From a virus (taxonomy: Duplodnaviria > Heunggongvirae > Uroviricota > Caudoviricetes), in IMG/VR virus record IMGVR_UViG_2908567220_000002, positions 33,901-97,900 of that record: a DNA stretch of 64,000 nucleotides. One strand, 5' to 3'. Both the position numbers and the translations under genes were made by a program. Positions 4,432 to 22,017 of this stretch are shown here, piece after piece (position 1 is the first letter of the stretch; every line of letters begins with the position of its first letter). The notes under the pieces were generated by a model, which was not told where the DNA came from, did not search any database, and saw only the letters and a list, made by a program, of their open reading frames with translations.

Positions 4432-4584
4432 TTTTAGATATCCAAGATATTTACTCTAATTTAACCATAGTATTCCCAACCTCTTTTTATTGGGGGTTGG
4501 GTTCATTAAAGTCACCATTTTCTATTTCTTTCCCGTTAGAGGATATATTATTTCCAGATAAAGAAAGCAACTTCTTATGCAACT

Positions 4585-4689
4585 TCATATCACGCCATGC
4601 TTCCACCGCGGTAACTCTACATAGTCCATTAACAGTTCATGCCATTCTTCAAAACTGGCGTTATATTTAGTTGAAGCAAAATCAGCCAT
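4585..4689 (-). CDS. Small protein (34 aa), hypothetical, translationally coupled to the upstream acidic ORF
   Basis: MADFASTKYNASFEEWHELLMDYVELPRWKHGVI; SD-like GAGGAAGA in the end of the preceding ORF. Confidence 0.25.
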   Translation of the reverse strand: MADFASTKYNASFEEWHELLMDYVELPRWKHGVI

Positions 4690-4690
4690 T

Positions 4691-4864
4691 TTATTCTTCC
4701 TCTTCGTCTTTTATTTCGTGATATGAGTAATTGCAGTAGTTAAAGAAAATATCTTTTGCTTCGTCATGTATTTCATCAGGCGTCGCATCATCATCCACTT
4801 CGAATTCATCCTCGAAATCTCCACCGGCTATTCCCGTTTCAATAATTATTTTGAACTTTCGCAT
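4691..4864 (-). CDS. Small acidic protein (57 aa), hypothetical
   Basis: Hand-translated: MRKFKIIIETGIAGGDFEDEFEVDDDATPDEIHDEAKDIFFNYCNYSYHEIKDEEEE; AT-rich; below ORF-track size cutoff. Confidence 0.3.
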   Translation of the reverse strand: MRKFKIIIETGIAGGDFEDEFEVDDDATPDEIHDEAKDIFFNYCNYSYHEIKDEEEE

Positions 4865-4953
4865 TTAACTACCGCCCTGCCGGACAGCCTCCTGATGTTC
4901 TGAGGGCGCCCCCCTCCGGTTAAGGATTAAATTTTTAACAGTGCTAAATTTAA

Positions 4954-5310
4954 TTATTCAGTTCTTGATTTTGTCGCCCTGCGTATCCGCGCTTTCGCGT
5001 TACGCTCAATCTGAATTAGCTTTTCTATATTTTTCCGCCTTTCCTGTTCCTCCTGGAGCAATAACCTTACATCATCTGCCAGTCTGGTTTCTCTTTTCGC
5101 CACAGAGAGCATCCAGTCAAATGGCTCCACAACTGCACCGCAGATTTTACAGCGGACCTGACGCTCTTTTTCGTCAACCCGGACAGAGGCGTGATGGCAA
5201 TATGGTCTTTCCGATGGCTCATAAAGAAAATTAACCTGATTACGAGGGTCATCCTCTTTTGCCGGAAATAAAACGATATTGCTTAACTCATCTTCTGGTT
5301 TTATTTCCAT
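4954..5310 (-). CDS. Hypothetical protein with Cys/His cluster
   Basis: Likely start MEIKPEDE (tracked ORF 4954..5391); CHH...CKIC motif then basic coiled-coil-like tail. Confidence 0.45.
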   Translation of the reverse strand: MEIKPEDELSNIVLFPAKEDDPRNQVNFLYEPSERPYCHHASVRVDEKERQVRCKICGAVVEPFDWMLSVAKRETRLADDVRLLLQEEQERRKNIEKLIQIERNAKARIRRATKSRTE

Positions 5311-6007
5311 GCTCCTCTCCTTTGATGCGAATGCCAGCGGCGCGTGGCACATTAACTTCCACGATGCGCACAGTTGGTTTGTACATCTCAATCGCTGTCA
5401 GCCAGTCAGCTCCTGTCATGCGTTTTTCCGCATCGCCATTAGTCCACTGAACCGGCACACCAATAGCCTTCATCGCGATTTCTATTTCCCCGGCAATGGC
5501 GCTTTTTCCGCAACCAGTAAAACCAGATACAACGACAAGAACTTCGCCTTTGGCTGGTTTTATTTCCCGTGCTTCCAGTTCTGCTATGCGCTTACTTCCA
5601 TCCGCGATTACTCCCTCGTAATACTCACGCTGCTCGTTGAGTTTTGATTTTGCTGCTTCAAGCTCAACGCGCAGCTTCCCTACCGTTAGCGCAATCTCCT
5701 CGTTCTCCTGGTCGCGGCGTTTTATGTATTGCTGGTTTCTTTCCCGTTCATCCAGCAGTGCCAGTACGGTAGCCGGGTTAGCCTCTGCTATAAATGCTGC
5801 GTTTGCATAAGCCTGAGCATCTGTTTCAACCAGGCAGTTAGCATGACATTCTGCAATCACGCCACCGGGTTCTCCTTTCCATTTTTGACAAACAAAAACT
5901 CCTGTTAAATTGCCGTACTGGTTAACAGATGTATGCCCTACGATGTAGCTTCCTTTAGTTGCTTTTTCTGCCTTGGCACGCAGTACCTGATAGTCAATCT
6001 TGCTCAC
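5288..6007 (-). CDS. Ead/Ea22-like family protein (coiled-coil), tentative
   Basis: 239 aa starting MSKIDYQVLRAKAEKAT...; central coiled-coil region; typical nin-region gene. Confidence 0.45.
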   Translation of the reverse strand: MSKIDYQVLRAKAEKATKGSYIVGHTSVNQYGNLTGVFVCQKWKGEPGGVIAECHANCLVETDAQAYANAAFIAEANPATVLALLDERERNQQYIKRRDQENEEIALTVGKLRVELEAAKSKLNEQREYYEGVIADGSKRIAELEAREIKPAKGEVLVVVSGFTGCGKSAIAGEIEIAMKAIGVPVQWTNGDAEKRMTGADWLTAIEMYKPTVRIVEVNVPRAAGIRIKGEEHGNKTRR

Positions 6008-6488
6008 TGGTTGCCTCCTTCACAAAAATAATCCAATGTGTTTTATCGTTCTTGCCGGTGCGCTGGCTGATGATTGGTTTCGCGTCGGTTAGTGCCAATA
6101 TCTGGCGGACAGGCACTTGCGTTTCATTCCATTTAAAAATCAGAATGCCGTGTGGCCACAACACACGAAAGGCTTCTTTAAATCCCTGCCTCAAATCATC
6201 ACGCCAGGTATCTTTATTCAGCCGCCCATATTTCTTTCCCATCCAGGCGTTATCACCAACACGCTCAAGATGCGGAGGGTCGAATACAACAACCGGAAAC
6301 GATGCGTCTGCAAATGGTAATGCACGAAAATCTGCTATCAGGTCAGGGCTAATTATCAGTCGTCGTCCATCACATAATGTGTGCTCTTCCTTTCTGATAT
6401 CGCTAAATATCGCCCGGTCGTCATTCTTATCGAACCAGAACATGCGGCTGCCACAGCACATATCAAGAATGGTTGCCGGTGCACTCAC
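5994..6488 (-). CDS. Putative small SAM-dependent methyltransferase (DPPH motif)
   Basis: 164 aa; LDMCCGS (motif I-like) and VVFDPPH (motif IV-like). Confidence 0.55.
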   Translation of the reverse strand: MSAPATILDMCCGSRMFWFDKNDDRAIFSDIRKEEHTLCDGRRLIISPDLIADFRALPFADASFPVVVFDPPHLERVGDNAWMGKKYGRLNKDTWRDDLRQGFKEAFRVLWPHGILIFKWNETQVPVRQILALTDAKPIISQRTGKNDKTHWIIFVKEATSEQD

Positions 6489-6907
6489 TGCGCTACCTCC
6501 TGAAAATTACCCTGATAAAACGACAATATGCGCTGCATAACTTCGCTCTTCCGGCACTCACAGCAAATTATATTTTGGTGCCTGTCATAACGACGTATTT
6601 CTCCGTCTGGTAATGACCAGATAAGATCCGGATCAGCCACAGATGCTTTCTTCACTTTCGCCCTCGAGAGTTTTTTGCGGGCGTTTTGCCAGTCCTTACG
6701 CGCCTGCTCAGACGGGAATAACCCGTAACCAGAGTTGTATACATCGCCGCTGGCAACCAGCTCTCTTGCGAGAACGCTCATCAGATATCTTGTCGCACCT
6801 GTCTTGACTTCCAGTTGCCGTAACGTCTCACGCCCACTCTGGCGTACGAGTTCAACAACCTGTCCTTTAATTTTTTCCCGCTCTTCTTGTGTAAAAACTT
6901 TTGCCAC
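6485..6907 (-). CDS. Hypothetical protein conserved downstream of replication genes in both prophages
   Basis: 140 aa MAKVFTQEEREKIKGQVVELVRQSGRETL...; paralog at 53896..54318. Confidence 0.6.
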   Translation of the reverse strand: MAKVFTQEEREKIKGQVVELVRQSGRETLRQLEVKTGATRYLMSVLARELVASGDVYNSGYGLFPSEQARKDWQNARKKLSRAKVKKASVADPDLIWSLPDGEIRRYDRHQNIICCECRKSEVMQRILSFYQGNFQEVAQ

Positions 6908-6947
6908 AAGCCCTCCTGAAAATTACCTCATGACCAGAAATTAACAC

Positions 6948-8024
6948 TTACCCCCTGAAGCCCGGCGGAATTTCGTTATCCGGTTCAGAAATATGATTCA
7001 CACAACGCTGGTTGTTCGTGCCGCTTACCGGGAGCAACCAGGGGTTCTCAAAATTCCGGTCCGGTCCAAAAAACGTCGTCGCTCGCTGAACAAATTCCGT
7101 TCCCGTTTTCCCGGTAGCCGCCAAGTATCTTGCGTAACGCCTCACGCCATCCAGCATGGCCTCTGGTGGCACCCCCTCGCGTAATCTGGCCTTCCAGGCA
7201 CTGAAAGCGGATTTCTTCGGGTTTGCCCCAGCACGCAACGGGTACTCCCGCCAGACCTGTTCGAACACATCCGGATAATCCACTCGTCCCACAGACTGCC
7301 CGGTGTTTTCCGGGACTACCCGATCGGCTTCCCGCTGAATGGCGGAATCGGCTTCGGGCTGCTGCAGTTGGTGTGATTGCTCCGGCCTTGCGGTCATCAC
7401 CTGCTGCACAGCGCCCGAATCGGCTTTCAGCGCATACGCTGAATCGGCTTCCGGTGTCGTGCCTGCTAGCTGACCAAGATTGACGGTCTGAACATCCCCT
7501 GCCTGGTTCGTGGCGTTTTTTACGCCATGGACCATAGTGTTTTGATCTTCTTGATCTGTATCTTTATCTGTATCTTTATCTGTCGTGACTCGTCGTGACA
7601 TGTGCGTGACATTTCGTGACGCGCCGTGACAATCGCCATTTTGTTCCCGCTTTCTTTCCCTCTCTCGCTGCGCCCTCTTGCGCTCTGCCGGAGATTTTGC
7701 GGTTTGCGAAATATTGCCGTTGTCCTCTTTAAGCACCTGGCGTTTTTCCCATCCAGTGATTAAATCACCATCAAGTACCCGCCCCTGCATCGTCTGCAAA
7801 ATTGAATCAATTACCTCTTCTGTCACGTCGAGCGCACTTGCCAAATCTTCTGTCGTGACATCAATGTGACCTCGCGTGACATTTCGTGACGCGCTCACCA
7901 GGAGGTGGATATACACTGCCATCACTGTTGCAATTGGCTGCCCTGACACCCTGGCAATTGTTCGCCACTTAGGGTCATTTGGCATGTCATGCCATAATCT
8001 GAGCCAGGCGTTAGCCATACTCAC
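6948..8024 (-). CDS. Replication initiator (O-like), with internal origin iterons
   Basis: 358 aa; position after cro/YdaT; internal DNA iterons encode TDKDTDKDTD; C-terminal 20 aa shared with B's replication protein. Confidence 0.7.
   Translation of the reverse strand: MSMANAWLRLWHDMPNDPKWRTIARVSGQPIATVMAVYIHLLVSASRNVTRGHIDVTTEDLASALDVTEEVIDSILQTMQGRVLDGDLITGWEKRQVLKEDNGNISQTAKSPAERKRAQRERERKREQNGDCHGASRNVTHMSRRVTTDKDTDKDTDQEDQNTMVHGVKNATNQAGDVQTVNLGQLAGTTPEADSAYALKADSGAVQQVMTARPEQSHQLQQPEADSAIQREADRVVPENTGQSVGRVDYPDVFEQVWREYPLRAGANPKKSAFSAWKARLREGVPPEAMLDGVRRYARYLAATGKTGTEFVQRATTFFGPDRNFENPWLLPVSGTNNQRCVNHISEPDNEIPPGFRG
7545..7630. repeat. Putative replication origin iterons inside the O-like gene
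   Basis: Tandem TATCTTTATCTG repeats, then CGTGAC repeated about every 10 nt; second cluster at 7843-7886. Confidence 0.6.
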
Positions 8025-8089
8025 CTCTTCTGATACCGAATCTTTTTACTCACGAGTTGCCGGAAGCGATTCGATATGGCTATTGTCAG

Positions 8090-8515
8090 TCAATGTACTG
8101 CCACAGCATTTCCTGCCGGGCCACCACGGTTCATCTGATTGAAACCGGCGATTGCCACTGCGACAAAATCATCAGCGTCTCTCACCAGTCGCTCCCGCGT
8201 CTCCACCAGCTCCCGAAAATAAGCTGAACTGTGGCTGCGCATTCGGGCCACCAGCAGAGGTGGCATTGCTTTTTCGATAGCTGGTAACAACGCCTGAATT
8301 TTTTTAACCGCATCAGGGGTGTCTTTCTCCACCCAGCGGAAAATTTTCTGAGTATTGCGAGCCAGGGCTTCCGGATGGCTGTCGTCATACAGTTCCGGGA
8401 ACGTCATTCCCAGCTCGAAATACGCTTTGGTAATTTTCGCAGCCGGTACTTTTTCGCCGTCCGGATGCGCCCAGGCATTCATCGCCATGCGGATGTGTTC
8501 ATGCTTGATTTTCAT
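8090..8515 (-). CDS. YdaT-like protein (CII position)
   Basis: 141 aa MKIKHEHIRMAMNAWAHPDGEK...; paralog at 56864..57289. Confidence 0.65.
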   Translation of the reverse strand: MKIKHEHIRMAMNAWAHPDGEKVPAAKITKAYFELGMTFPELYDDSHPEALARNTQKIFRWVEKDTPDAVKKIQALLPAIEKAMPPLLVARMRSHSSAYFRELVETRERLVRDADDFVAVAIAGFNQMNRGGPAGNAVAVH

Positions 8516-8766
8516 GAATCAACTCCCATCAGCTTTTTCGTAGTAGTTTTATTCCTGCCAATAGTTAAAATTGCATCGGCAGAAAATAATCCGTTTGATG
8601 CAAGAGCGATTTTTTCAGCGTAATTTGTTTCGCCGGTATATTCTGTGCGAGGCAATTTTCCGTTATCCATCCATTTATAGATTGCTCTTTGGCTGACACC
8701 ACAAACGTCGGCCACAACAGCAACGCGAACAGTTTTGATTACATCTTCAAGTGTTTTCTGGTTCAT
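8512..8766 (-). CDS. Cro-like HTH regulator
   Basis: Likely start MNQKTLEDVIKT (tracked ORF 8512..8838); divergent from repressor gene. Confidence 0.6.
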   Translation of the reverse strand: MNQKTLEDVIKTVRVAVVADVCGVSQRAIYKWMDNGKLPRTEYTGETNYAEKIALASNGLFSADAILTIGRNKTTTKKLMGVDS

Positions 8767-8845
8767 ATCACCCTCACAATGTGAACTTTGAGTACATGCT
8801 ATAACAGAACTGACAGTACATTCAAGAGCGAATATCATTGAACTT
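8767..8845. promoter_or_regulatory. Divergent promoter/operator region between cro-like and repressor genes
   Basis: Repeated AGTACAT-type half-sites (GAGTACATG, CAGTACATT); similar GTAC motifs downstream of repressor gene at ~9320-9370. Confidence 0.45.
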
Positions 8846-9265
8846 ATGGTTCATGAAGATAAAGCGCGTAAAGAGTTCGCCAGTAGGCTTGCGCTAGCCT
8901 GTGAAAACGCTGGTTATGAACAACATGGAAGGCAGGCAGAAATTGCCCGTCGAATGAAATTAACACCAAAAGCGGTTAGCAAATGGTTTAATGGCGAAAC
9001 AATTCCTCGCCGGGAGAAATTAAGGGAATTAGCAACACTAATAGGAACAACACCAACCTATCTTTTGGGAGAGGATACAGAAGAAAGTGGACAGGTACGT
9101 TTCTATCAGGAGTTAAATCCAAGACAAAAAATCATCATTGACCTTCTGGACGAGCTCCCTGACAGTGAGACAGATGAACTTTTAAAAACTCTTGAAGAGA
9201 AAAAACAGAAGTACAATGCAATTTACGAAGAGTTAGCACGAAAGAAAAAACAAAAAGCCTCTTAA
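8846..9265 (+). CDS. Prophage repressor (RacR/DicA-like HTH, no S24 peptidase domain)
   Basis: 139 aa; N-terminal HTH region; C-terminal 50 aa nearly identical to B's repressor at 57655..58074. Confidence 0.7.
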   Translation: MVHEDKARKEFASRLALACENAGYEQHGRQAEIARRMKLTPKAVSKWFNGETIPRREKLRELATLIGTTPTYLLGEDTEESGQVRFYQELNPRQKIIIDLLDELPDSETDELLKTLEEKKQKYNAIYEELARKKKQKAS

Positions 9266-9559
9266 ACCAGCATAAATCCGGTAGCGCCTTCCTCCGGGTT
9301 TGTGCTTCACTTTATCCCATCTCATTTTTTTACACACAAAATGTACTAAAAGTACTTTACAACAATGAACGCAAAGTACATTATATGCCTGCCACCCACC
9401 CCGCCCCACAGAATGCAGGGCAATACTTCGAGTTACCAGGCAGTGGTCAGGGGGTAAGTAGCCAGCCCGAGGCGTAAGAACATGACGGCAGGGTTCAACT
9501 TTAACTATGCAGCAGGTTTTTGTTCCGCTACCCCGGCGTTAAGGGGAAATGAGGTCAAC

Positions 9560-9715
9560 ATGGATACTATCGATCTTGGCAACAACGAATCTCTGGTATA
9601 CGGCGTGTTTCCCAACCAGGACGGAACGTTCACCGCGATGACGTATGCCAAAAGCAAAACGTTTAAAACCGAATCTGGCGCGCGTCGTTGGTTGGTAAGA
9701 CATTCAGGTGAATAA
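9560..9715 (+). CDS. ydfA: YdfA-like protein
   Basis: 51 aa MDTIDLGNNESLVYGVFPNQDGTFTAMTYAKSKTFKTESGARRWLVRHSGE. Confidence 0.75.
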   Translation: MDTIDLGNNESLVYGVFPNQDGTFTAMTYAKSKTFKTESGARRWLVRHSGE

Positions 9716-9716
9716 A

Positions 9717-9863
9717 ATGAACGAAACAGAATTAAAACACGTTATCGCTCTGCTTCTGGAGGATGCAAAACGCCTCCAGCAACTGGAACCAAATGCAGGC
9801 ACTGAAGCCCGCATCTGGCTGGCATTGTACGCTATTGAGTCAGGTCGTGATGATGAAGGTTAA
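9717..9863 (+). CDS. YdfB-like small protein (tentative)
   Basis: 48 aa MNETELKHVIALLLEDAKRLQQLEPNAGTEARIWLALYAIESGRDDEG; hand-translated, below track cutoff. Confidence 0.55.
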   Translation: MNETELKHVIALLLEDAKRLQQLEPNAGTEARIWLALYAIESGRDDEG

Positions 9864-10144
9864 GCATCATCTAAGTTTTTTACATAGCGCCCATTAGATT
9901 CGGTAACAAGAACACCGGGATTTTTCTTAACTTTTGAGGCCACTGATTCAGCAAGGTCAGCAACAGATTCTTTGTCTTCATTCTTGCTTGAATATATATA
10001 TTCGGCATTAGGAAGACGGTAGGTGTTCCCTAAAGAGGTTGTAATCGTTCTGGAGAATCCCTTTGCTTCCATTCGTTCATGAAGCTTATCGTAATCAGCG
10101 GAACTGGAATCGCGAAGTTCGATCCTGACTGTAAATTTTGCCAT
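9860..10144 (-). CDS. Hypothetical protein encoded antisense to the early-left operon
   Basis: Start MAKFTVRIELRD with GGAGGA SD 4 nt upstream. Confidence 0.5.
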   Translation of the reverse strand: MAKFTVRIELRDSSSADYDKLHERMEAKGFSRTITTSLGNTYRLPNAEYIYSSKNEDKESVADLAESVASKVKKNPGVLVTESNGRYVKNLDDA

Positions 10145-10159
10145 TTTATCCTCCATTTA

Positions 10160-10455
10160 GGTTCTGGGTTAGAAATGGAGACCAATACGGGGCTACGTGT
10201 GGTCGTGCGCCGGACACGGATAAGAATCCGGCACTGACAGTTTACTGAAAGGATATTTCCCTGAAAAGTCAGGGCATAACACGAAAGCGTACGGCGAAGG
10301 CCTTCACCTATGAGGCTTGTCGTTAATTTCTTCGACCGTGCGCTTCCGGTTGTGGCACTCCGCGAAATGGCGCGGCGGTAAGTATGGCGGGGTTATTCCT
10401 TCCCCCGTTGAGGACACCGGGTTGTCAGGTTGACCATACGCTTAAGTGACAACCC
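10160..10455 (+). other. Conserved non-coding element (also upstream of DicF in prophage B at 59100-59410)
   Basis: ~290 bp highly similar between prophages with small indels, no conserved ORF; inverted repeats GGGTTGTCA / TGACAACCC. Confidence 0.5.
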
Positions 10456-10504
10456 CGCCATAACTCATACTGCTATAGATATATGGGGACTAACCGGAGG
10501 AAAA

Positions 10505-10726
10505 ATGATAGTTCAATGCACAGACGGGAATAATAAGCTGCTCTGGTCATACGATACCGTCAGCCAGAAACACATAATGAATATGACTTTTATAAAGGAC
10601 GGTACTCAACAAAAAATCATTACCGCCCTTGCAAGTGCATTAACTCAGGCGACAAGCCAAATTCTGCTATCTGATAACGTTAATGGAGTATCTGATATTG
10701 GCTCGATGACCGGGAGGGAGTGCTAA
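10505..10726 (+). CDS. Small hypothetical protein (73 aa)
   Basis: GGAGG SD 5 nt before ATG; MIVQCTDGNNKLLWSYDTVSQKH...; lies in the segment that replaces DicF. Confidence 0.4.
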   Translation: MIVQCTDGNNKLLWSYDTVSQKHIMNMTFIKDGTQQKIITALASALTQATSQILLSDNVNGVSDIGSMTGREC

Positions 10727-10930
10727 TACAACATTCCAGTAACCCGAGTGGGGCACGGTAATATTGGCAGGGAATCGTTCATAGAAACCGCCGTAATAGG
10801 TAAAACGCCCGCCCCGCTTGAAAGCCTGGTAATTTGAATCATCCATTAATAAAACATTAATCTGGTGTGAACATTGAACCCTGACAAGGTCACCATCATT
10901 CATGTGTTCACGACTATGTATATGGGACAT
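10667..10930 (-). CDS. Small hypothetical protein (88 aa), convergent with and overlapping the preceding ORF by 60 nt
   Basis: AGGAG SD then ATG; MSHIHSREHMNDGDLVRVQCSHQINVLLMDDSNYQAFKRGGRFTYYGG... Confidence 0.5.
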   Translation of the reverse strand: MSHIHSREHMNDGDLVRVQCSHQINVLLMDDSNYQAFKRGGRFTYYGGFYERFPANITVPHSGYWNVVLALPPGHRANIRYSINVIR

Positions 10931-11456
10931 AAACACTCCTTTTTACTGTGGAAAGCTAAATCATATCACGGTCTATGAAGTAAAAAGTGAATTTCGTGAT
11001 GCGGTGAATGCGGCTCAGCGCACGCAGAACAGTTAAAAACACAAGTGTTATGGGTGAATCATCCGGCGTTAATTGCTAACTGGTTAACGTCACCTGGAGG
11101 CACCAGGCACCGCATCACAAAGTTCACTTAGGTGATGAAAGGTAGAGAAAATGTTGAATGTAGCTATTGAAAACCAGAACGGGTGGAATTATAGTGCACC
11201 TGCACCTCATAAAACGGGTGCCGGGCGTGGAAACCCGATGTTCACTAACGCGCATAACCGCGCTCAGGCGGTTTTTTTATGCGTAATGCACAGCCACATT
11301 CAGATTATGGTGGGACGTGCAGGGCAGCCGCAAGGCTGGCCGGGTTCGTTAGTGACCGGTATTTCCACCCCTGTACGTCTCACCACCCTTATGGTCGTGG
11401 AAAACCTTGGTGGTGAGTTAATCAAATTCACTAACGAGGCTGCTATCATGGCTACT

Positions 11457-12002
11457 ATCCCTACCCTTTCTCAACCTGACGTAACCATCGAAAATGGTCG
11501 CGCTGTCACTACGTCTGTTGCGATCGCCGAGTTCTTTGGCAAACGCCACGACAATGTTATTCAAAAAATAAAATTACTGGATTGCTCCCCTGAATTCACT
11601 GCCCTTAATTTTAAGGTGAGCGAATACACCGACTCAACCGGGCGCAAACTCCCTATGTACCAAATCACCAAAAACGGCTTCGTTTTCCTGGTGATGGGCT
11701 TCACGGGCAAAAAAGCCGCAGCTTTCAAGGAAGCCTACATCGCTGAATTCGATCGCATGGAGGCAGAGTTGTACCAGCTTAATACCACTACCACAGACAA
11801 AATAATTCCTGGTGATGGTCGCACTCTCGTTGTTCACTTCGACGAACGCGGCAATATCAAATTCACCGAAACCGTTCCTGACGGCGCTCTCGTCTGTACT
11901 CTGGATACTTTCCGCTTTTATCTGGAGAAGCAGGGGTGGACTCTTGTAAACAGGAGCGCAATTAAAAATATGACCGTCGAGCAGTTGCTGAGTATTAAAT
12001 AG
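11457..12002 (+). CDS. Rha-family phage regulatory protein (antirepressor-like)
   Basis: Start MATIPTLSQPDVTIENGRAVTTSVAIAEFFGKRHDNVIQKI matches Rha N-terminal domain; tracked ORF 11151..12002 extends upstream. Confidence 0.65.
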   Translation: MPTLSQPDVTIENGRAVTTSVAIAEFFGKRHDNVIQKIKLLDCSPEFTALNFKVSEYTDSTGRKLPMYQITKNGFVFLVMGFTGKKAAAFKEAYIAEFDRMEAELYQLNTTTTDKIIPGDGRTLVVHFDERGNIKFTETVPDGALVCTLDTFRFYLEKQGWTLVNRSAIKNMTVEQLLSIK

Positions 12003-12048
12003 TTTTCTGGAATTTTCTTAATGCGACAAATTTATTAAGGAGATAATT

Positions 12049-12270
12049 ATGATTGCTCATCACTTCGGAACTGATGATATTCCTCGTCAGTGCGTGACTC
12101 CCGGTGATTATGTTATTCATAAAGGAAGAACATATATTGCTTCGGTAAACAATATAAAAAAACACCGGCTCTATATTCGTGATTTTTCCACACAACACTG
12201 TATTAATGAAACCATGATTAAAGTCTTCCTTGATCGTGATGGTTTACCTGTAAAGGCGGAGTCGTGGTGA
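12049..12270 (+). CDS. Hypothetical protein (73 aa)
   Basis: AAGGAG SD; AT-rich; between Rha and exonuclease genes. Confidence 0.4.
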
Positions 12271-12387
12271 GCTGTAATAAAATAACTACCCCAATACGAC
12301 ATTCAGTTTAATAAATACATCAGATTCGATTCTTATATGCCAGCAATGGCAGTGACTTGTTCACCCCTAAATCTGTAATGAGGTTTA

Positions 12388-14826
12388 TTGATGAGCACGA
12401 ATAAAGAAGTGTTTGCGCTATATTGCGAAGCTAAAAATGACAAGGTCAGAAAGCGTCTCGGTATTAAAGGTGGCTTTTTCTGGATCGAAGCCAAAAAACT
12501 TTCCGTTGCAGTTTCCCGCTGTATTGCCGCTATGGACGATGCTGGCTACGACGAAGATGATTTCAAAAAAACAGTTCGCGTCCATTTGCCTGTTCTAAAT
12601 GACCTGCCACCTGAAGGCGTATTTGATACTGATTTCTGTAACCGTTACGAAAAAGGTGGAGAAGATGGCATCACAATGATGCCGGTACCGTCCAGCAACA
12701 GCGATGAAAACAGTAACGCCGCTAATACTAACGTCAACGGCGAAGACATGATTGAGATTGAGGAGAATATTCTTCTGCCGGTTTCAGGTCAGCTTCTGCC
12801 TGTTAGATGGCTGGCACAGCACGGCAGCGAAAAACCTGTCACGCATGTTTCACGGGATGAACTGCGGGCATTACATAACGCACAGGAAGAAAAACTTCCC
12901 GCCGTTACCGCTCTGGCCATCTCAAATAAAGCAGTGCAACTCGAACCGCTGGAGATTCGGGATTTGTACAAACTGGTGCGGGACACTGACAAAGTTTTTC
13001 CCGCCCCCGTAAATTCAGACCTGGGACTGATGACTTCCTTCATCGAAGCATACCTGGACGCTGACTACACCAATCGCGATCTGCTTACAAAAGAGTGGAT
13101 GAAAGGAAATCATGTTTCGCGAATCAGCCGCACACCATCCGGCGCTAACGCTGGCGGCGGTATTCTTACCGATCGCGGCGAAGGTTTTGTACACGATGAT
13201 GCATCACTGGCGCGCGACGTAGCCACTGGCGTGCTGGCCCGTTCAATGGACGTGGACATTTATAACCTTCATCCGGCACACGCTAAACGCGTCGAGGAAA
13301 TTATCGCTGAAAATAAACCGCCCTTTTCTGTTTTCTTCAGCAAATTCATCACCATGCCGGGCCACAAGGATTTCTCCCGTGCCATCGTGGTTGCCTCCGT
13401 GAAAGAATCACCAGTTGGTATAGAGGCTATGCCCCACCGTGTCACCGAATACCTGAATAAAGTGCTGACTGAAACCGATCATGCCAACCCTGATCCGGAA
13501 ATCGTGGATATTGCCTGCGGTCGCTCCTCTGCCCCGATGCCGCAGCGTGTAACTGAAAAAGAAAAACATGATGAAGAAAAACCGCAACCATCTGGCGCAA
13601 TGGCAGATGAACAGGCAACGGCTGAAACAGTGGAACCGGATGCAACTGAACATCATCCGGACACGCAGCCGGTGGATGCTCAGCCACAGGTGAATTCTGT
13701 TGATGCGAAATATCAGAAACTGCGGGCAGAACTCCATGAAGCTAGGAAAAACATTTCGCCTAAAAATCCTGTCGACGCAAACAAATTACTGGCAGCCTCT
13801 CGCGGAGAATTTGTTGAAGGGATTAGTGACCCGAATGATCCGAAATGGGTTAAGGGGCTCCAGACTCGCGAGTCTTCGAACCAGAATCAACCAGAAGTGG
13901 AACAAACCAAGCCAGAATCGGGACAAAATAGCCAGGATGCACACCAAAATGAACCAAAAACGATACATCCGGAGCCAGCAGCGCAACATGCACAGAAAAA
14001 TCCCTGTAATGTTTGTGGGGAAACTGGCGGGGGCACATGCCCTGACTGTGCCTCAGTAATGGGTGACGCAACTTACCATGAGACATTCTGCGAGGAAGAT
14101 TCAGATGAATCTCAGGAAAAAGCTCCGGAGGAGATGGAAAACCCTGAACATCCGCATCCGGAAAATACTGACAGCAATCAGCATAACAATAGCGGTGATA
14201 AAACTGACAGGACGACAAATTCCTTAATTAATATGCACGGTCATCAGAAAAGAACATCCACCAGCAGAATGTGTCACCATCTGATGATCGACCTTGAAAC
14301 AATGGGAAAAAATCCTGATTCCCCGATTATCTCAATAGGTGCAATATTTTTCGATCCGCAAACCGGAGAGATGGGACCAGAATTTAATAAAACCATCGAT
14401 CTGGAAACTGCTGGCGGAGTCATTGATCGGGACGCGATCAAGTGGTGGCTGAAGCAATCACGCGAAGCGCAATCTGCCATTCTGACCGATGAAATCCCGT
14501 TAGATGATGCACTGCTGCAATTGCGGGAATTTATCGCCGAAAACTCCGGTGAATTGTTTGTTCAGGTCTGGGGAAATGGAGCCAACTTCGACAACGTGAT
14601 TTTGCGCCGTTCATATGAACGGCAGGGTATCCCCTGCCCGTGGCGCTACTACAACGATCGCGATGTACGCACAATCATTGAACTGGGAAAATCCATAGAC
14701 TTCGATGCCAGGACGCCTATTCAATTCGAAGGCATACGCCACAATGCGCTGGATGATGCCCGTCACCAGGCGAAATACGTTTCAGCAATCTGGCAAAAAC
14801 TGATCCCGAATCAGTCTGATTTTTAA
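12388..14826 (+). CDS. Large early-left protein with C-terminal DEDDh (DnaQ-like) 3-prime-5-prime exonuclease domain; exodeoxyribonuclease VIII-like position
   Basis: 812 aa; C-terminal [25 protein letters not shown] motifs; [15 protein letters not shown] zinc-ribbon-like motif; C-terminal ~190 aa identical to B's 60109..62580. Confidence 0.7.
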
Positions 14827-14889
14827 TGTTCAACCCCAGTCGTCGCCCCCAGCTATAGTGGCGGCGACCATGATTAGCGAACGATACTC

Positions 14890-15138
14890 ATGGCAAGACT
14901 TATTCTGCTCACTGAGTGGGCAAAAGAGGAATTCAGCGATCCGGTCCCTACTCCGGGCACGTTAAGTAAATACGCTAAAGCCGGAATGATATTTCCTCTC
15001 CCCAAAAAAGTTGGAAGACACTGGCGAGTGGATCCGCGAGCTCGCTTTGTCGGAATGGTAAACAAGCCGGAGGTGATCGCCACAGATCACCCTGCTTTAA
15101 AGAGGATACTGGAAGATGGCACGCCCGCGAAAATATAA
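14890..15138 (+). CDS. xis: Excisionase-like protein
   Basis: 82 aa immediately upstream of and overlapping int; identical copy at 62644..62892. Confidence 0.65.
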   Translation: MARLILLTEWAKEEFSDPVPTPGTLSKYAKAGMIFPLPKKVGRHWRVDPRARFVGMVNKPEVIATDHPALKRILEDGTPAKI

Positions 15139-16246
15139 AACCGCTGTTCCGGGATTATCTCCGTATTTTGACAAAAGAAATAACAAAGTTTACTGGCGTT
15201 ACAGGCATCCCATCACAGGTAAAAATCATGGACTCGGCAGTATTGACCAGAAACTGGCGGAAACCATTGCAGCAGAAGCGAACAGCCGTCTTGCCAGACA
15301 ACAAATGGAGCAAATGCTCAGTCTGCAGGAGAAAATTATTAGTGATACCGGCGGCGCATCAACCGTTTCCATTTTTCTGAATAATTACAGAAAAATTCAA
15401 CAGGAAAGATATGAGAACGGAGAGATCAAACTCAGCACGCTGAAGCAAAAAGCGGCTCCTCTCAGGGTGTTTGATGAACGTTTTGGAGCCAGGCCGCTAG
15501 ATGCCATAACAGTAAAAGATGTGGTATCGGTGCTGGAAGAATACAAGGCAAAGGGACATAACAGAATGGGACAAATTTTCAGGAAGGTATTGATCGATGT
15601 TTTCCGGGAGGCTCAACAAACGGGTGATGTCCCGCCAGGCTTTAACCCGGCTGAATCGGCAAAAAAACCGCAAGTGCGGATATCAAGACAGCGACTGACT
15701 TTTGATGAGTGGATGATGATTTATAACGCAGCGGAAAAGGATGGTTACTTTTTACAGCGCGGCATGCTGCTGGCACTGATGACGGGCCAGCGTCTTTCGG
15801 ATATTTGCAAAATGCAGTTTTCGGATATCCGGGATGGTTACCTTCATGTCGAACAGCAAAAAACAGGAGCCCGGATAGCCATTCCTCTGGCTCTGCGTTG
15901 CGACAAATTAAATCTTACCCTGGGTGACGTGGTGTCATCCTGTCGTGATTACATCCTTAGTCCGTGGTTATTGCACCATCATCACGCTAAGGGGATGGGT
16001 AAGCGCGGCGGGATGGTTAAACCAGCAACGTTAACAGTCGCATTTAAAAAAGCCCGGGATTCTGTGGATTACAACTGGCGTGCTAATGGCACGCCACCCT
16101 CTTTCCATGAGCAAAGATCTTTATCAGAACGATTGTTCAGAGAACAGGGAATTGATACCAAAATTTTGCTGGGCCATTCGAATCAAAAAATGACCGATGT
16201 TTACAACGATGCACGCGGTAAGGAGTGGAAAAAACTGGTCATTTGA
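15116..16246 (+). CDS. int: Tyrosine-type phage integrase
   Basis: 376 aa; terminal gene next to att region; intact version of B's disrupted copy. Confidence 0.9.
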   Translation: MARPRKYKTAVPGLSPYFDKRNNKVYWRYRHPITGKNHGLGSIDQKLAETIAAEANSRLARQQMEQMLSLQEKIISDTGGASTVSIFLNNYRKIQQERYENGEIKLSTLKQKAAPLRVFDERFGARPLDAITVKDVVSVLEEYKAKGHNRMGQIFRKVLIDVFREAQQTGDVPPGFNPAESAKKPQVRISRQRLTFDEWMMIYNAAEKDGYFLQRGMLLALMTGQRLSDICKMQFSDIRDGYLHVEQQKTGARIAIPLALRCDKLNLTLGDVVSSCRDYILSPWLLHHHHAKGMGKRGGMVKPATLTVAFKKARDSVDYNWRANGTPPSFHEQRSLSERLFREQGIDTKILLGHSNQKMTDVYNDARGKEWKKLVI

Positions 16247-16260
16247 TGACCAGTTTTGCA
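16234..16260 (+). terminator. Hairpin overlapping int stop, followed by T-rich tract
   Basis: Perfect palindrome CTGGTCAT-TTG-ATGACCAG then TTTTGCAG; three direct TTTTGCAGA repeats at 16253-16286 may be integrase arm sites. Confidence 0.4.
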
Positions 16261-16302
16261 GAAGAGTTTTGCAGAGATTTTGCAGAGAAAATTAGAAGCG
16301 GT

Positions 16303-16419
16303 ATCCGGCAGAGAACATAAACACCCACGGATCCAGTCGTACCGCGTCTTTCACGGGGGTTCCATTAAATTTATAGCTGGCGGTTGTGTCGATATCCATG
16401 TACCACACTGGTAGGTTTC
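16303..16419 (-). other. ompW: Phage-borne ompW 3-prime end fragment marking the att region / prophage A-B junction
   Basis: Encodes ...WYMDIDTTASYKFNGTPVKDAVRLDPWVFMFSAGYRF*, matching the OmpW C-terminus as recalled; upstream sequence is not ompW. Confidence 0.6.
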
Positions 16420-17005
16420 AAAAAACACAATAACCAATTGTATTTGAAGCAAAAAAACAAGACTTTGAGATGTTTTTTTGTACCTTTTTTTATGCTTTTA
16501 ACTGTCTGATTTTATTGAAATCTTTTTTAGTTTTGCAGAAGGAATTTTTTACTTGATTGTAACTTTTTCGTTTTTTTGGGGCTAATTGACGCGCAATGCT
16601 GGGCGGGGAGCGCACAGCCAAAAAAACCGAAATTGACCGCTAATTACTGCCAATCATCATCGCTCTGATTGAGCGTAAATCATTCAGGTTATTCAGTTCT
16701 TCCTTCTGCTCTCGCTGACGTCAATAAATCCCATCATTGCGATCAACCTCATCCTTAACCATTGATGCGAGCAGTTCTTCCAGTTTCTGCGCTGACAGCT
16801 TTACCTGGTGATCTTCAGCATCTTCCCGGGCTATTGTGGTTCGCGCAGTGGCTGATTTTGCTGACATCACCACAGGGGGCAGACGGACCATTGAACCATG
16901 GCCTCCGGAACAAATAAGGGCAAAAATAACAACCACTATCGAAAGCTCACAAACTAACCGCAGCACGTTCCTGCATACGACGTGTCTGCGGCATAATCCC
17001 AATGA

Positions 17006-17275
17006 TTACTCCCTGACAGGATTTGCAGGCCACTCAATATCAGGTACAGTTGATGTATCAACACGATTCAACAATACCCGATATTTATTCCATGCCTCCA
17101 GCAACGATCTTTCTTCCTCCGTTGCGATTTCCAGATCTACAGCATCCTGCAGTGGCGCAATATACTCACTGAATTCCTGGATGTAGAACTGTGTGGTGAC
17201 GGTCTTCCAGCCATTCGGCTCCTGCTGTATCGAAGCATACCAGGCTATTTCAATATCGCTATGCTGCGGCAGCAT
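17006..17275 (-). CDS. Tail fiber assembly (Tfa)-like protein, truncated variant
   Basis: 89 aa; C-terminal ...[50 protein letters not shown] is a Tfa C-terminus; 3-prime part repeated at 18055-18195. Confidence 0.6.
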
Positions 17276-17331
17276 TTAACCCCTTGTAATTCATCGCCAT
17301 AATTGATTTAATTCACAAATAAAACTATAAC

Positions 17332-18000
17332 ATGGTGAAATCAATGAAAAAAAACACAGATGATGGGGCTAAAATTTACACACCACTTACCCTAAAGCTT
17401 TATGACTGGTGGGTTTTGGGAGTATCAAATCGGCTTGCATGGGGATGTCCTACAAAGGAACACCTTCTTCCACACTTTCTGGAACATGTAGGTAACAACC
17501 ATCTGGATATTGGTGTTGGAACTGGGTTTTACCTTACTCACGTACCTGAGAGTAGTCTGATATCTTTAATGGATTTGAACGAAGCTAGCCTGAACGCGGC
17601 ATCTACAAGGGCTGGGGAATCAAAAATTAAACATAAAATTAGCCATGATGTTTTTGAACCTTATCCCGCGGCGTTACATGGTCAATTTGATTCCATTTCC
17701 ATGTTTTACCTTCTTCACTGCCTGCCTGGAAATATATCTACAAAAAGCTGTGTAATACGCAATGCGGCGCAGGCCTTAACTGACGATGGAACTCTATACG
17801 GAGCCACAATTCTTGGCGATGGAGTTGTGCACAATAGCTTCGGTCAAAAACTGATGCGCATTTACAATCAGAAAGGCATCTTTTCAAACACAAAAGATTC
17901 CGAAGAAGGCTTAACACATATACTCTCAGAGCATTTCGAGAATGTTAAAACCAAGGTTCAAGGTACTGTAGTAATGTTTTCCGCTTCAGGGAAAAAATAG
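17332..18000 (+). CDS. Class I SAM-dependent methyltransferase, substrate unknown
   Basis: 222 aa; Rossmann SAM motif LDIGVGTGFY; AT-rich; flanked by direct repeats of Tfa 3-prime sequence. Confidence 0.8.
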   Translation: MVKSMKKNTDDGAKIYTPLTLKLYDWWVLGVSNRLAWGCPTKEHLLPHFLEHVGNNHLDIGVGTGFYLTHVPESSLISLMDLNEASLNAASTRAGESKIKHKISHDVFEPYPAALHGQFDSISMFYLLHCLPGNISTKSCVIRNAAQALTDDGTLYGATILGDGVVHNSFGQKLMRIYNQKGIFSNTKDSEEGLTHILSEHFENVKTKVQGTVVMFSASGKK

Positions 18001-18054
18001 CATCCAACCGCAGCACGTTCTTGCTTAAGACGTGCTGCGGCATAATCCCAATGA

Positions 18055-18237
18055 TTACTCCCTGACAGGATTTGCAGGCCACTCAATATCAGGTGCAGTT
18101 GATGTATCAACACGGTTCAGCAACACCCGATACTTTTTCCAGGCTTCCAGCAATGAGGTTTCTTCCTCCGTTGCGATTTCCAGCTCAACAACAGTCTGAA
18201 CGTACCGGGAACAGCCTCCTTCAGAGCTTGAAGGATA
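18055..18237 (-). pseudogene. Tfa C-terminal remnant with no start codon, directly after the stf stop
   Basis: Encodes ...[43 protein letters not shown] in frame after stf TGA; no ATG. Confidence 0.55.
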
Positions 18238-21200
18238 TCAATGTTCGCTTCCTGTTAACTGCCGGACAAGTGCAACCAGTTCGCTTACCTGATTTTCCAG
18301 AGTGCTGATCCGGGTGTCTGCTGTTGCCAGATTTTCACGTAGCGTTGTGTTTTCCTCTTCCAGCGCGGTAACGCGATCATCTGTTTCACGGGCGACCTGA
18401 ACAAGTAAACCCGTCACGGCGGCGTAGTCAACATTAAGATAGCGCGTTTCTTCGCGTAGCTCGTTGCCGTCAACGGTCGGGCCTTGCAACTCTTCACCAT
18501 AATGAGTAAACGATCCCACAGCTTCTGGTATCGCCTCCATTACTTCCTGTGCAATAACGCCAGCATAAGGCATCCCGTTTTCCCTGAGCGTGTAGGTGTA
18601 TCCGTTCATTTTACGGATTGCTTTCGTCGCGTCGCTGATAACGAGAATATCGTCTTTAAGGTCGCGGTCTGATGACTGATTCAGCGTTGTGCAATTAATA
18701 GCGCCATTTACATCAAACAACTGGCCTGCTGACGTTTTTTGCGCATAAAACAGATACGCAGCAGACGTTCCAACCTCAAAAACGTTTTGTCGAGTACTGG
18801 AACCCCACACCCTGACAGAAAACGGCAGTTCTGCATTGCCTGAGTTCTGTAAAACAAAACGATTACCAGTCCCTGATTGCTTTGTAAGGGTTAAATCAAC
18901 GGTTGAGTTAACCTCATTCTTGTTGATAGTGAGCGCCTGCGCTGTAGCCCCGTTAACAGCACCTGTTTTGAGTTGAACCGCGCCGTCATTACCATTTAAC
19001 AGTATCTCAGCTCCGCTAAAGAAATTTTTTAGCGACAGCATCTTACTTACGCCGACTGATGAACCCAACGCCCACGCGAGAGAATTACCGGTGCTATCAA
19101 ACCCACGTACAAAGCAATCCATTTTGCTATAGTCTGACGTGCTTCCAAGGACATCAATTCGCCCTCCGCCAGATTTTACCGGACTAGATGTGGTTAACGA
19201 CCTGACAGTTATATCCTGATTCCATCCGGAAACAACAACCTGACTCCACGCTGTCCAGTTTCCATTAACAACAAAGCGAACGTATATACGTTTTGTGTCG
19301 CTGTTAATCAGCGTTTGCATGTTCGCATAATCTGAATCCCTAACCTTACGAGTCGACTCTACACGGAGCAAAAAGTTACCGGTTACACCGTCAGGCTTGT
19401 TGGTGATATTTGCACCACCTCCAGAGGATGGACAACTATAGTATTTAACCGCCCCGGCATCTGACCTGATGGTCAGGTTGTTAAGATCAACCTTCTGGCC
19501 GCCAATGTTTTCAGGCTCGATGGCTCCTGCTATCCCGGCACTGAACGTAGCAGCGGCTGAAAACGCTGTCGTACCTTTGAAAGCCAGTTGACCACCAATC
19601 GTTAATCCCTTGTCGAGTTTCGCTTGCGTGATCAATTTGCTGTTTTGTTTCTGATCAGGACTCTCGCCAAAAGCCAGATCCCCATTAGTATCAATTCCAA
19701 GATACTTTTGGTTCACGTTGTCTAACTTAAACCCAATGGACACATTTTCAGAAGAACCGGAACGCGTTAAAACCAACGGCGTGTGCTGTACTCCATAGAT
19801 GCTGAGCGTAGTTGCCGATGAGTCAGTGTCGGTATTTGCAATCTCAATCGTTCTGCTTTTAATTTTATACGCTACTGTGAGATCACGGACTTCAACCCTC
19901 CCGTCGTGACGAACAACAAGATCCCCTCCTGATGTCCCCCCTGCTGTCTTTGCCCTGATGCGAACTTCGCCAAGCGAATCAGTGTTAGGACCAGCATAGA
20001 TTATGCCGCGCTCTGTGTTATCGCCAGTATAAAACCGCAAAGCGGTGACTCCACTGTCTGCCCGCAGGAAGACTGACGGTGTACCTTTTTTGATTGTCAA
20101 GTCACCGGTCATTGTATCGCCGGTTTTTTTTACCTGCGCATCGTTCGTTACGTTGCCAAGTCCAACATCCGATTTCGACGGCTTGTTTGCCGAGCCGTAT
20201 AGCTCATTGACGCTAAAAGTCCCGTTGTTAAGCCGGGCATCGGTGCCGGCATAGATCTTAATCTTCGCGGTTGAGTAGTCGATATTGATCGCTGACCACG
20301 TATCGCCGCACCGCGAGAATATACCAGAACCGTGGCTATAAATGGTCGCCGTGCTTCCGGTCGGCTTATCACCGCGCCAGAAATGACCACCTTTGTCACG
20401 CAGAGCTTTTAAGATCTCTACATCGCTCATCTTGCCGTTTGTTGATATCCCGCTACCGCCAAGACCGAAAGCGCCTGTAAGCATAGCATTAGAAAGACCC
20501 AAATCTGCTTTAGTCGGCTTGTTTAACTGGTCGTAAATCCTTACAACGGGGCTTTCAACATATCCAGAAGGCGCGGCGGTTTGCTTAACAAATCCGTCTG
20601 GAATGTATAATTCCGTGCGTGCCGTCTGCGCCAGTACCGCAACCTTTGCGCCGTTGATAAATGCGCGCTGGAAGGCCCAAACCTCAATAAAGCCATCACC
20701 TTTAACCAGGCCGTAACGCATCTGGTTGTTATCGGTCAGCCCGGTTGACCCTAAGCGGCGTATACTCAGATGACGAGAAACATTATCCGCACTAAGCAAA
20801 GAAGGCATACCGCGCGCCGAGATCTCGATAAAGTCAATGTTTCCGTAAGGGGAGCCGTAGTTACCAGCGTTAGTAACCATTAGCGTTACATGGCAATTGC
20901 CGCTTCCGGGATCGGAAAGTTTCGCGATCTTTATGTAAAAAGACTCATTACCAGTAACAACGGGCCAATCGTATTGCGTCATCGGGCTGACGAGTCCCCC
21001 GACCTTGTCGAGATATTCTTTCGCCTTGTTCTCTGACGCTTTAGCGTTGGTTTCGCTGACCTTTGCTGCTGCCTCACTATTTTTCGCGTTGGTTTCTGAT
21101 TTTTTGGCTGCTGTCGCGGAGTTTGCCGATGCAGTTTGTGAGTCTGCTGCCGCCTGTGCGCTGTTATCCGCATTCGTCTCAGACGTTTTTGCGGCCTTCG

Positions 21201-22017
21201 CGGAATTTCCTGCCGCCGTTGCCGAGGAAGCTGCACTACTGGCACTTGATGATGCGTTCGTTTCTGATGATTTCGCTGCCTCTTTTGAGGCCGCCGCATC
21301 CCGGGATGAGGTGGCAGCTTCTGACGCTTTCGTGGTCGCGGTGGATGCAGAAGTGGCTGCAGATTTTTGTGACGCTGCAGCATTCGTTTCTGACGTTTTC
21401 GCCGCACCGGCACTGGTGGCTGCCGCGCTTTTTGAAGACTCTGCGGCGGCAGCACTTTTTAATGCTTCAGTGGCCTTTGTTGATGCCGTTCCTGCGCTGG
21501 AAAAAGCCTCCTGAGCCGACGTCGCGGCCTGTCCGGCTGACGTTCTGGCTGCGCGTGCTGAGTCTGCAGCATCAGTCGCATGGGTTGCCGCCTCACGGGC
21601 TGATGTGCCGGCATCGCTGGCTGACTTCTTCGCGGCTGCCGTGTTCTGTGCCACTGCGGACGCGTTACGCGCCACCTCTGCCACCATCAGTTCAAAGCGG
21701 CGCAGTGCCTCCGGACGGGCATCATCCTCCGTCATGGCACCGAGAAAATCATTCAGCGTACCCGGTTGTGAGTCTTCATACACGGTGATGGTCCCGGCAT
21801 GCGATGGCGGGAAGCCTTCCACCAACAGAATAACGCTGTACTGACCGTACTCAACGTCCATGCTGTAACGCCCTGCTTCATCCGGATTTTCAGATGCCAC
21901 CGTGTTCACCACCACCGTGGTGCTGTTACGTTTTGCTTTCAGCTGGATTGTGCAGTTCTGTACCGGTTTACCTGCACCGTCTTTCAGTACACCTGAAATC
22001 TTTACTGCCATATTCAC
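18238..22017 (-). CDS. stf: Side tail fiber protein (Stf-like) with Ala/Ser/Thr-rich repeats and C-terminal chaperone-type domain
   Basis: 1259 aa; low-complexity KSAATSA.../SETNA... repeats; C-terminal segment resembling autoproteolytic tail-fiber chaperone domain. Confidence 0.8.
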   Translation of the reverse strand: MNMAVKISGVLKDGAGKPVQNCTIQLKAKRNSTTVVVNTVASENPDEAGRYSMDVEYGQYSVILLVEGFPPSHAGTITVYEDSQPGTLNDFLGAMTEDDARPEALRRFELMVAEVARNASAVAQNTAAAKKSASDAGTSAREAATHATDAADSARAARTSAGQAATSAQEAFSSAGTASTKATEALKSAAAAESSKSAAATSAGAAKTSETNAAASQKSAATSASTATTKASEAATSSRDAAASKEAAKSSETNASSSASSAASSATAAGNSAKAAKTSETNADNSAQAAADSQTASANSATAAKKSETNAKNSEAAAKVSETNAKASENKAKEYLDKVGGLVSPMTQYDWPVVTGNESFYIKIAKLSDPGSGNCHVTLMVTNAGNYGSPYGNIDFIEISARGMPSLLSADNVSRHLSIRRLGSTGLTDNNQMRYGLVKGDGFIEVWAFQRAFINGAKVAVLAQTARTELYIPDGFVKQTAAPSGYVESPVVRIYDQLNKPTKADLGLSNAMLTGAFGLGGSGISTNGKMSDVEILKALRDKGGHFWRGDKPTGSTATIYSHGSGIFSRCGDTWSAINIDYSTAKIKIYAGTDARLNNGTFSVNELYGSANKPSKSDVGLGNVTNDAQVKKTGDTMTGDLTIKKGTPSVFLRADSGVTALRFYTGDNTERGIIYAGPNTDSLGEVRIRAKTAGGTSGGDLVVRHDGRVEVRDLTVAYKIKSRTIEIANTDTDSSATTLSIYGVQHTPLVLTRSGSSENVSIGFKLDNVNQKYLGIDTNGDLAFGESPDQKQNSKLITQAKLDKGLTIGGQLAFKGTTAFSAAATFSAGIAGAIEPENIGGQKVDLNNLTIRSDAGAVKYYSCPSSGGGANITNKPDGVTGNFLLRVESTRKVRDSDYANMQTLINSDTKRIYVRFVVNGNWTAWSQVVVSGWNQDITVRSLTTSSPVKSGGGRIDVLGSTSDYSKMDCFVRGFDSTGNSLAWALGSSVGVSKMLSLKNFFSGAEILLNGNDGAVQLKTGAVNGATAQALTINKNEVNSTVDLTLTKQSGTGNRFVLQNSGNAELPFSVRVWGSSTRQNVFEVGTSAAYLFYAQKTSAGQLFDVNGAINCTTLNQSSDRDLKDDILVISDATKAIRKMNGYTYTLRENGMPYAGVIAQEVMEAIPEAVGSFTHYGEELQGPTVDGNELREETRYLNVDYAAVTGLLVQVARETDDRVTALEEENTTLRENLATADTRISTLENQVSELVALVRQLTGSEH

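Follow-up and report, generated by a model that had tools for sequence, protein, structure and literature searches.

What is the 3′ end of ompW, a bacterial gene, doing directly behind a phage integrase, with more phage genes on its other side? The question arises in a stretch of 64,000 nucleotides of a virus record (the window, whose coordinates are used throughout). A model that saw only the letters of the window and a list of its open reading frames (the sequence-only reading) had proposed that two prophages, here called A and B, are joined head to tail at this point. It took the joint for an attP-like site between phages, and the ompW fragment for the phage's own replacement of the ompW terminus. 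We consider it very probable that 16231-16550 is an attP-like site between two different lambda-like ompW-integrating ("PPompW") prophages, arranged head to tail.

Layout of the two prophages

The head-to-tail arrangement was borne out. Prophages A and B have the same orientation, both are lambda-like, and they are collinear yet distinct. Window 1-16246 (A) is collinear with 48.1-64.0 kb (B) at a patchy identity of 83-95%, and the direct repeats between A and B are offset by ~47.4-49.7 kb. A 25-kb query from the window against complete E. coli genomes resulted in a best coverage of 57%, with an identity of 92-93%. The features that define the two prophages are as follows.

12388-14826, plus strand: exonuclease of A, RecE-like in the N-terminal part and 3′-5′ exoribonuclease-like in the C-terminal part (Pfam PF06630, PF16473)
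14890-15138, plus strand: excisionase (xis) of A (PF07825 Exc, E 4.3e-07; annotated "excisionase" in relatives)
15116-16246, plus strand: integrase A, an intact lambda-type tyrosine integrase (PF09003 at aa 2-71, PF00589 at aa 193-367)
16551-18237, no strand assigned: accessory end region of prophage B (annotations of collinear relatives; direct repeat D8)
17332-18000, plus strand: class I SAM methyltransferase of B (Pfam methyltransferase families)
18238-22017, minus strand: tail fibre gene of B (ORF lists; annotations in relatives)
62870-64000, plus strand: integrase B, equal to integrase A except for a C>T at 63056

The window begins inside prophage A and ends at the stop codon of integrase B. 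The chromosomal genes yciE and yciC and the body of ompW were not found anywhere in the 64-kb window, and both outer att sites lie outside it. Because the window ends exactly at the integrase B stop, it does not reach the att site on the right of B. Since the window holds no chromosomal DNA, we infer the ompW location of the pair from relatives such as GPEC403-625, where the order is yciE, ompW remnant, prophage, int, ompW fragment, prophage, int, intact ompW and yciC.

Integrase A is an intact integrase of the lambda type: the N-terminal domain that binds the arms and the catalytic domain are both recognised in its sequence. It matches lambda Int structures with an E-value of 2.7e-55 over aa 14-375, and the alignment keeps the TGQR, FHExRS and LLGH motifs and the terminal Y. 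The identity to intE of PPompW_14040 is 96.3% in amino acids and 92.8% in nucleotides over all 1131 nt; to six other ompW-locus integrases it is 92.5-96.1%. Both search thresholds for PPompW integrases in PMC8112680 (>90% identity, >90% length) are exceeded. The xis gene of A adjoins int and overlaps its start.

The sequence-only reading gave both prophages the same int-xis. This holds for the stretch as a whole: 14250-16246, which covers the 3′ part of the exonuclease gene, xis and int, equals 62004-64000 at every base except the C>T at 63056, and the identity profile puts the start of identity between the two exonuclease copies at ~14250. It does not hold for the products. The C>T turns codon 63 of integrase B from Q into TAA (Q63stop), so that integrase B is a pseudogene and A is the only one of the two with an intact integrase. 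What remains open in B is a 313-aa reading frame at 63059-64000, which starts with an ATG immediately past the nonsense codon. The shared xis-int implies the same att specificity for A and B, which, like their common orientation, is a feature of tandem dilysogens.

Beyond the junction, the sequence is not ompW, as had been said, but the end region of the second prophage, beginning past 16410. The accessory region at 16551-18237 contains a DUF4376 pseudogene, two 3′ fragments of tail-fibre-assembly genes and the methyltransferase. The structural genes of B continue rightwards from ~18.2 kb on the minus strand.

Structure of the junction

We aligned the junction with the empty site (attB) of K-12, with both ends of the single ompW prophages of FORC_069, NU14 and SLK172, with the internal junctions of GPEC403-625, EC4115, PEC422 and FRIK2069, and with the deposited genome of Escherichia phage 204576. 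The following features were delimited.

16231-16257, no strand assigned: perfect palindrome with 12+12 nt arms over the integrase A stop codon
16254-16286, plus strand: three direct copies of TTTTGCAGA in the integrase-side arm (P′), exact at 16254, 16267 and 16278
16290-16410, minus strand: 121 bp of ompW 3′-end homology (alignment to K-12 ompW)
16389-16410, no strand assigned: core block TCGATATCCATGTACCACACTG, 22 bp, common to attB, the window junction and nearly all aligned att copies
16411-16550, no strand assigned: opposite arm (P) of attP, belonging to prophage B (100% identical to the FORC_069 prophage end)
16531-16539, plus strand: fourth, exact copy of TTTTGCAGA, a candidate arm-type site at the outer edge of attP

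Only integrase-side prophage ends (FORC_069, SLK172, GPEC403, PPompW_14040) match the window to the left of 16290, and to the right of 16410 only the opposite, yciE-side ends do. The stretch 16411-16720 is 100% identical to the FORC_069 prophage end that adjoins a chromosomal ompW remnant and yciE; the yciE-side prophage end of NU14, also next to a chromosomal ompW remnant, matches the window right of 16410 at 99%. Against the unoccupied ompW locus of K-12, homology covers exactly 16290-16410, and both flanks are phage. The junction is thus composed of an integrase-side arm (P′ of A), an ompW-homologous core region and the opposite arm (P of B), and it is on these alignments, with attB, both prophage ends and other attP-like sequences, that the attP-like assignment is based. 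The genome record of Escherichia phage 204576 is collinear with window 13774-18183, across the junction, which fits an intact phage attP.

The integrase A gene ends, with its TGA at 16244-16246, inside the hairpin that the sequence-only reading had pointed out. The palindrome is 27 nt long, AAAACTGGTCAT-TTG-ATGACCAGTTTT, and its arms (16231-16242 and 16246-16257) are 100% complementary. The predicted RNA fold has -14.9 kcal/mol on the plus strand (z -3.3) and -14.4 kcal/mol on the minus strand (z -6.0), and was equalled by 0/200 shuffles. On the minus strand, which is ompW-sense, six T follow directly. The palindrome is unchanged in all aligned integrase-side sequences. It may function as a bidirectional terminator that ends ompW transcription in the lysogen; a consensus terminator scan did not list the palindrome, nor anything else at the junction. 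No known RNAs or tRNA were found at the junction.

The three direct repeats noted earlier behind the palindrome are exact, and the copy at 16531, which had gone unmentioned, is a fourth. The window has 5 copies of TTTTGCAGA against 1.08 expected, and 4/5 fall within 286 bp. The triplet is present in every relative examined, with SNPs confined to the spacers. A 13-mer, AGTTTTGCAGAAG, is the same in the first and fourth copies, and the fourth is found at the same distance in PEC422, EC4115, GPEC403 and phage 204576. In the divergent P arms of SLK172, PEC422 and FRIK2069, homology runs from the core to ~16550 and collapses just past the fourth copy. Because the repeats are invariant among variable spacers, the first and fourth have the 13-mer in common and homology ends just past the fourth, the four copies are candidate arm-type sites for the N-terminal domain of Int, by analogy with lambda. 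They lie 103-156 bp (the three) and 121-150 bp (the fourth) from the 22-bp core interval. These positions suggest an attP of ~290 bp, predicted to run from 16254 to ~16545 and bounded by the repeats.

The P arm is A+T-rich (75% over 16440-16560). A perfect IHF consensus was not found in the attP region, and one-mismatch matches occur at 16455, 16458 and 16499. The G+C-rich stretch 16560-16640 was considered as a sib-like or terminator structure and rejected, as it folds no better than shuffles (z -0.7, -0.3).

The ompW homology (blastn E 8e-17) comprises the last 39 codons, the stop and 2 nt of K-12 ompW, and is the sole homology to the yciC-ompW-yciE locus in the window. The OmpW-like C-terminal fragment described from the letters alone is the minus-strand ORF 16292-16408, which encodes ...YMDIDTTASYKFNGTPVKDAVRLDPWVFMFSAGYRF*. 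The only mismatch-free stretch between attB and the window junction is 16389-16410. In FORC_069 and SLK172, the integrase-side copies are of phage type and the yciE-side copies of K-12 type, up to 16381 (FORC_069) and 16388 (SLK172). Since the phage-type bases are found at one prophage end and the K-12-type bases at the other as far as 16388, with agreement from there on, the alignments indicate that strand exchange must fall within 16389-16410, on the assumption that the original attB of these lysogens was K-12-like and has seen no later conversion. The core has one exception among the aligned copies, a G at 16406 in the yciE-side copies of FORC_069 and NU14. The best core-type inverted repeat in 16370-16425 is weak, with 5/7 matching positions (GTGTCGA N9 ACCACAC).

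The remaining 16290-16388 is best read as a phage-borne replacement for the ompW terminus, as had been proposed. In the single lysogens FORC_069 and SLK172, the integrase is followed by 45 bp and then by a full-length annotated ompW with a phage-type 3′ end. The 121-bp allele of the window is of the SLK172 type (99.4% identical; 72 complete E. coli genomes have it at 95% identity or more). It is because this same allele completes the full-length ompW beside the integrase in SLK172 that the replacement reading is supported. The window allele encodes ...TTASYKFNGTPVKDAVRLDPWVFMFSAGYRF*, equal to the C-terminal stretch of SLK172 OmpW except for one T/S residue just upstream. An exact 50-mer of the window allele had 0 matches in the genome contig database. 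The G at 16295 of the window is not conserved among E. coli alleles.

Origin of the tandem and the ompW cassette

The arrangement could have formed as follows. A phage would have been resident in the 3′ end of ompW, and the attP of a second phage with the same Int specificity would have recombined with a hybrid att site of the resident. Integration of a phage dimer would be an equivalent route. Either would yield attL - A - attP-like - B - attR. The ~100 ompW-like bases beside the integrase would act as a cassette that restores the last ~33 OmpW codons upon integration, with the palindrome supplying the terminator. At the internal junction the cassette would have no gene body to complete and would be inert as coding sequence. 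The junction itself should still serve Int and Xis, and excision of A, of B or of A+B would be possible.

A tandem can also be made by homologous recombination, if a circular incoming phage crossed with the resident prophage within shared sequence of the exo-xis-int kind. In that case the attP of the incoming phage would have stayed unrecombined and would itself form the junction, which would not be a hybrid of two phages. We regard this route as rather unlikely. The ~2 kb that are identical bar one base, against 83-95% elsewhere, point to a recent exchange between the copies; a crossover alone, however, would leave the copies non-identical, and later gene conversion would equalise them under either route. 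No feature of the junction separates the Int route from the recombination route, and Int-mediated tandem formation is the usual reading for phages that share an att site. Prophage clusters offer a different placement, away from ompW. The 121 bp are also found inside other clusters as "attB-in-PP_3" (PMC8112680), and here too they might be an ompW-derived attB within such a cluster, as at ydfJ/mlrA in O157:H7. EC4115 (O157:H7) has the int, the 121 bp and the arm, but the prophage that comes next has another integrase at its end, and clusters of this kind have been described and placed at ydfJ (PMC8112680). We nevertheless find this placement improbable for the window pair. The ompW-type xis-int of A recurs at the end of prophage B, an arrangement seen also in GPEC403-625, where intact ompW comes next. 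From 16411 onwards the window has the arm with which single ompW prophages truly end, not an internal region, and the 21-bp attB-in-PP_1 that accompanies such clusters is absent from the window with up to 3 mismatches allowed.

The join might also have been made by the assembler, from two prophages that share the 2-kb identical block, and one copy of the near-perfect repeat does stop exactly at the junction, the other at the end of the window. However, the join agrees to the base with the attP structure of 109 independent complete genomes and of the phage record. A mis-join in the repeat would not put the P arm directly behind the 121 bp, and A and B are otherwise distinct. An artefact is very unlikely on these grounds. 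The probability of an ordinary prophage-chromosome junction with a chromosomal ompW remnant is negligible, even though PGAP labels such pieces partial OmpW pseudogenes. This reading is out because the window has none of yciE, yciC and the ompW body, and the phage DNA on both flanks together with an allele of phage type, not K-12 type, rules out a remnant. The attP-like site between two ompW prophages is the reading that we retain.

The ompW 3′ cassette exists in at least three alleles, which differ mainly between the last two beta-strands of OmpW. The stretches are ANYKLGGAQQHDS in K-12, AKYKSGVTTVKDS in FORC_069 and ASYKFNGTPVKDA in the window and SLK172. This part of the protein is predicted to be its last surface loop. 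The cassette may then be something other than a neutral patch, and lysogeny could change a surface loop of OmpW, a receptor protein of the outer membrane. We find this idea doubtful. If true, the internal attP of a tandem array would harbour a reserve cassette, and excision of the distal prophage alone could transfer it to ompW. Loop variation among cassettes is the only thread here with some potential for novelty.

In practical terms, a partial "OmpW family" pseudogene between prophages should be annotated as an internal attP and not as a decayed gene, and the boundary between A and B should be set at 16389-16410. To the published 121-bp att we add the 22-bp exchange interval, the ~100-bp gene-completing cassette and a predicted, repeat-bounded attP of ~290 bp; the nonsense mutation in integrase B is a further small addition. 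With an internal attP site, excision can yield more than one product, and neighbouring prophages can exchange modules. This is of relevance to prophage-rich pathogenic E. coli, a point already made in published work, and beyond correct annotation the significance is little.

Comparison with known systems

The closest system is that of the PPompWs, lambda-like prophages at ompW with a 121-bp attL/R (Nakamura et al., 2021, PLoS Pathog, PMC8112680). They are present in 44% of 767 complete E. coli genomes, and their attP was determined by PCR on excised circles (PMC8112680). A second PPompW in tandem has been found in four O157:H7 strains, e.g., FRIK2069 (PMC8112680). Tandem ompW prophages with an internal att are thus already described in E. 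coli, and the window pair is ordinary in this respect. The 121-bp repeat_region in LC567818, annotated "duplication due to insertion of PPompW," covers exactly the same bases as window 16290-16410. As in the definition of a PPompW, these 121 bp lie directly downstream of int. The window also shares with PPompWs the homology of the att to the 3′ end of ompW and the int-45 bp-ompW stop spacing, and the int-fragment junction of the tandem PPompWs in FRIK2069 is as in the window. The int-ompW fragment-P arm junction occurs in 109/5,426 complete E. coli genomes, counting those where the match extends from the end of the integrase gene through the 121 bp and 130 bp or more into the P arm. Unlike the PPompWs of O145/O157, the window has a 121-bp allele of the SLK172 type. 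A further difference from the published PPompWs is that neither a T3SS-effector locus nor the 21-bp attB-in-PP_1 lies beside the window junction. Compared with the PPompW tandems, the window pair combines two different phages that have an identical int module in common, with a pseudogene for integrase B.

Tandem lambda dilysogens carry an attP (POP′) between the two prophages, in the order attL-prophage-attP-prophage-attR. The window junction has the same layout, an arm-binding Int, three repeats beside int like P′1-P′3, and a repeat on the other arm. Unlike in lambda, the target is in a protein-coding gene, and the core is separated from the three repeats by ~100 bp of gene-completing sequence. 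The four repeats at the junction, which are predicted sites, all have one orientation, also unlike lambda.

Phage 21 and e14 in icd, as well as phages of tRNA genes, carry a replacement for the 3′ end of their target. As in phage 21/e14, the att region of the window duplicates the 3′ end of the target, so that the gene stays intact and the displaced end is left as a remnant. The target gene and the integrase specificity differ from those of phage 21/e14, and in comparison with them the window cassette alters the amino acids between the last two strands of OmpW.

Alleles of the phage-borne ompW 3' end

The ompW 3' cassette carried by these prophages exists in at least three alleles, distinguished by the segment that lies between the final two beta-strands. 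The sequences compared are window 16290-16388 and the comparison loci L009 (43063-43701), L011 (3046-3684) and L003 (1521-2159).

Cassette alleles, segment between the final two beta-strands
K-12: ANYKLGGAQQHDS
FORC_069: AKYKSGVTTVKDS
The window and SLK172: ASYKFNGTPVKDA

Because the alleles differ at this position, lysogeny alters the sequence of OmpW. The barrel topology predicts that this variable segment forms the final surface loop of the protein.

ompW-type sites at other internal junctions

In E. coli EC4115 (O157:H7; loci L002 and L006; NC_011353.1, approximately 2,933,954-2,985,110), the same ompW-type int, the 121 bp of ompW homology and approximately 600 bp of P arm adjoin a prophage that has a different, xisR-type integrase at its end. 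The arrangement thus places an ompW-type attP, apparently complete, within a prophage cluster. This cluster is located at ydfJ (Nakamura et al., 2021; PMC8112680). The persistence of an intact ompW-type attP there is unaccounted for by the published 96-bp integration model.

The internal junction of PEC422 (locus L012, 3044-3169) has the window-type cassette up to approximately 16375 and E. coli-type bases at 16376-16388. A P-arm variant unlike that of the window comes next, with an ash/Rha module. Either the junction is a recombinant allele, or it is evidence that exchange can reach to the left of the 22-bp interval (16389-16410).

Putative accessory gene and RNA matches

The end region of prophage B contains what looks like an inserted accessory gene, also found in many ompW prophages, e.g., FORC_069, NU14 and GPEC403-625. 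The flanking direct repeats are 90% identical to each other.

16986-17149 and 18035-18198, direct repeats, 3' fragments of tail-fibre-assembly genes
17332-18000, between the repeats, class I SAM methyltransferase gene

Rfam matches scoring above the gathering threshold were found for sok antitoxin RNA in each of the two prophages (2521-2696 and 52240-52415). Prophage A also has matches to isrK and C4 antisense RNA (11202-11278 and 11303-11390), and prophage B has one to DicF (59414-59465). The whole 64-kb window contains no tRNA genes.

The shared integrase module

One 2-kb block is the same in prophages A and B except for one base.

14250-16246 (A) and 62004-64000 (B), 3' part of the exonuclease, xis and int

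Outside the block, the two prophages show patchy identity of 83-95%. The near-identity of the block against this background points to recent gene conversion or a recombined module common to both prophages.

Integrase B (62870-64000) differs from integrase A solely by a C>T change at 63056, which converts Q63 to TAA within the arm-binding domain. The final base of its own stop codon is the last base of the window (64000), and the hairpin, repeats and ompW sequence are expected immediately beyond. The codon right after the Q63 stop is an ATG (63059) that starts a 313-aa ORF. Reinitiation there, if it occurs, would yield an Int lacking the arm-binding domain, analogous to the C65 fragment of lambda Int.
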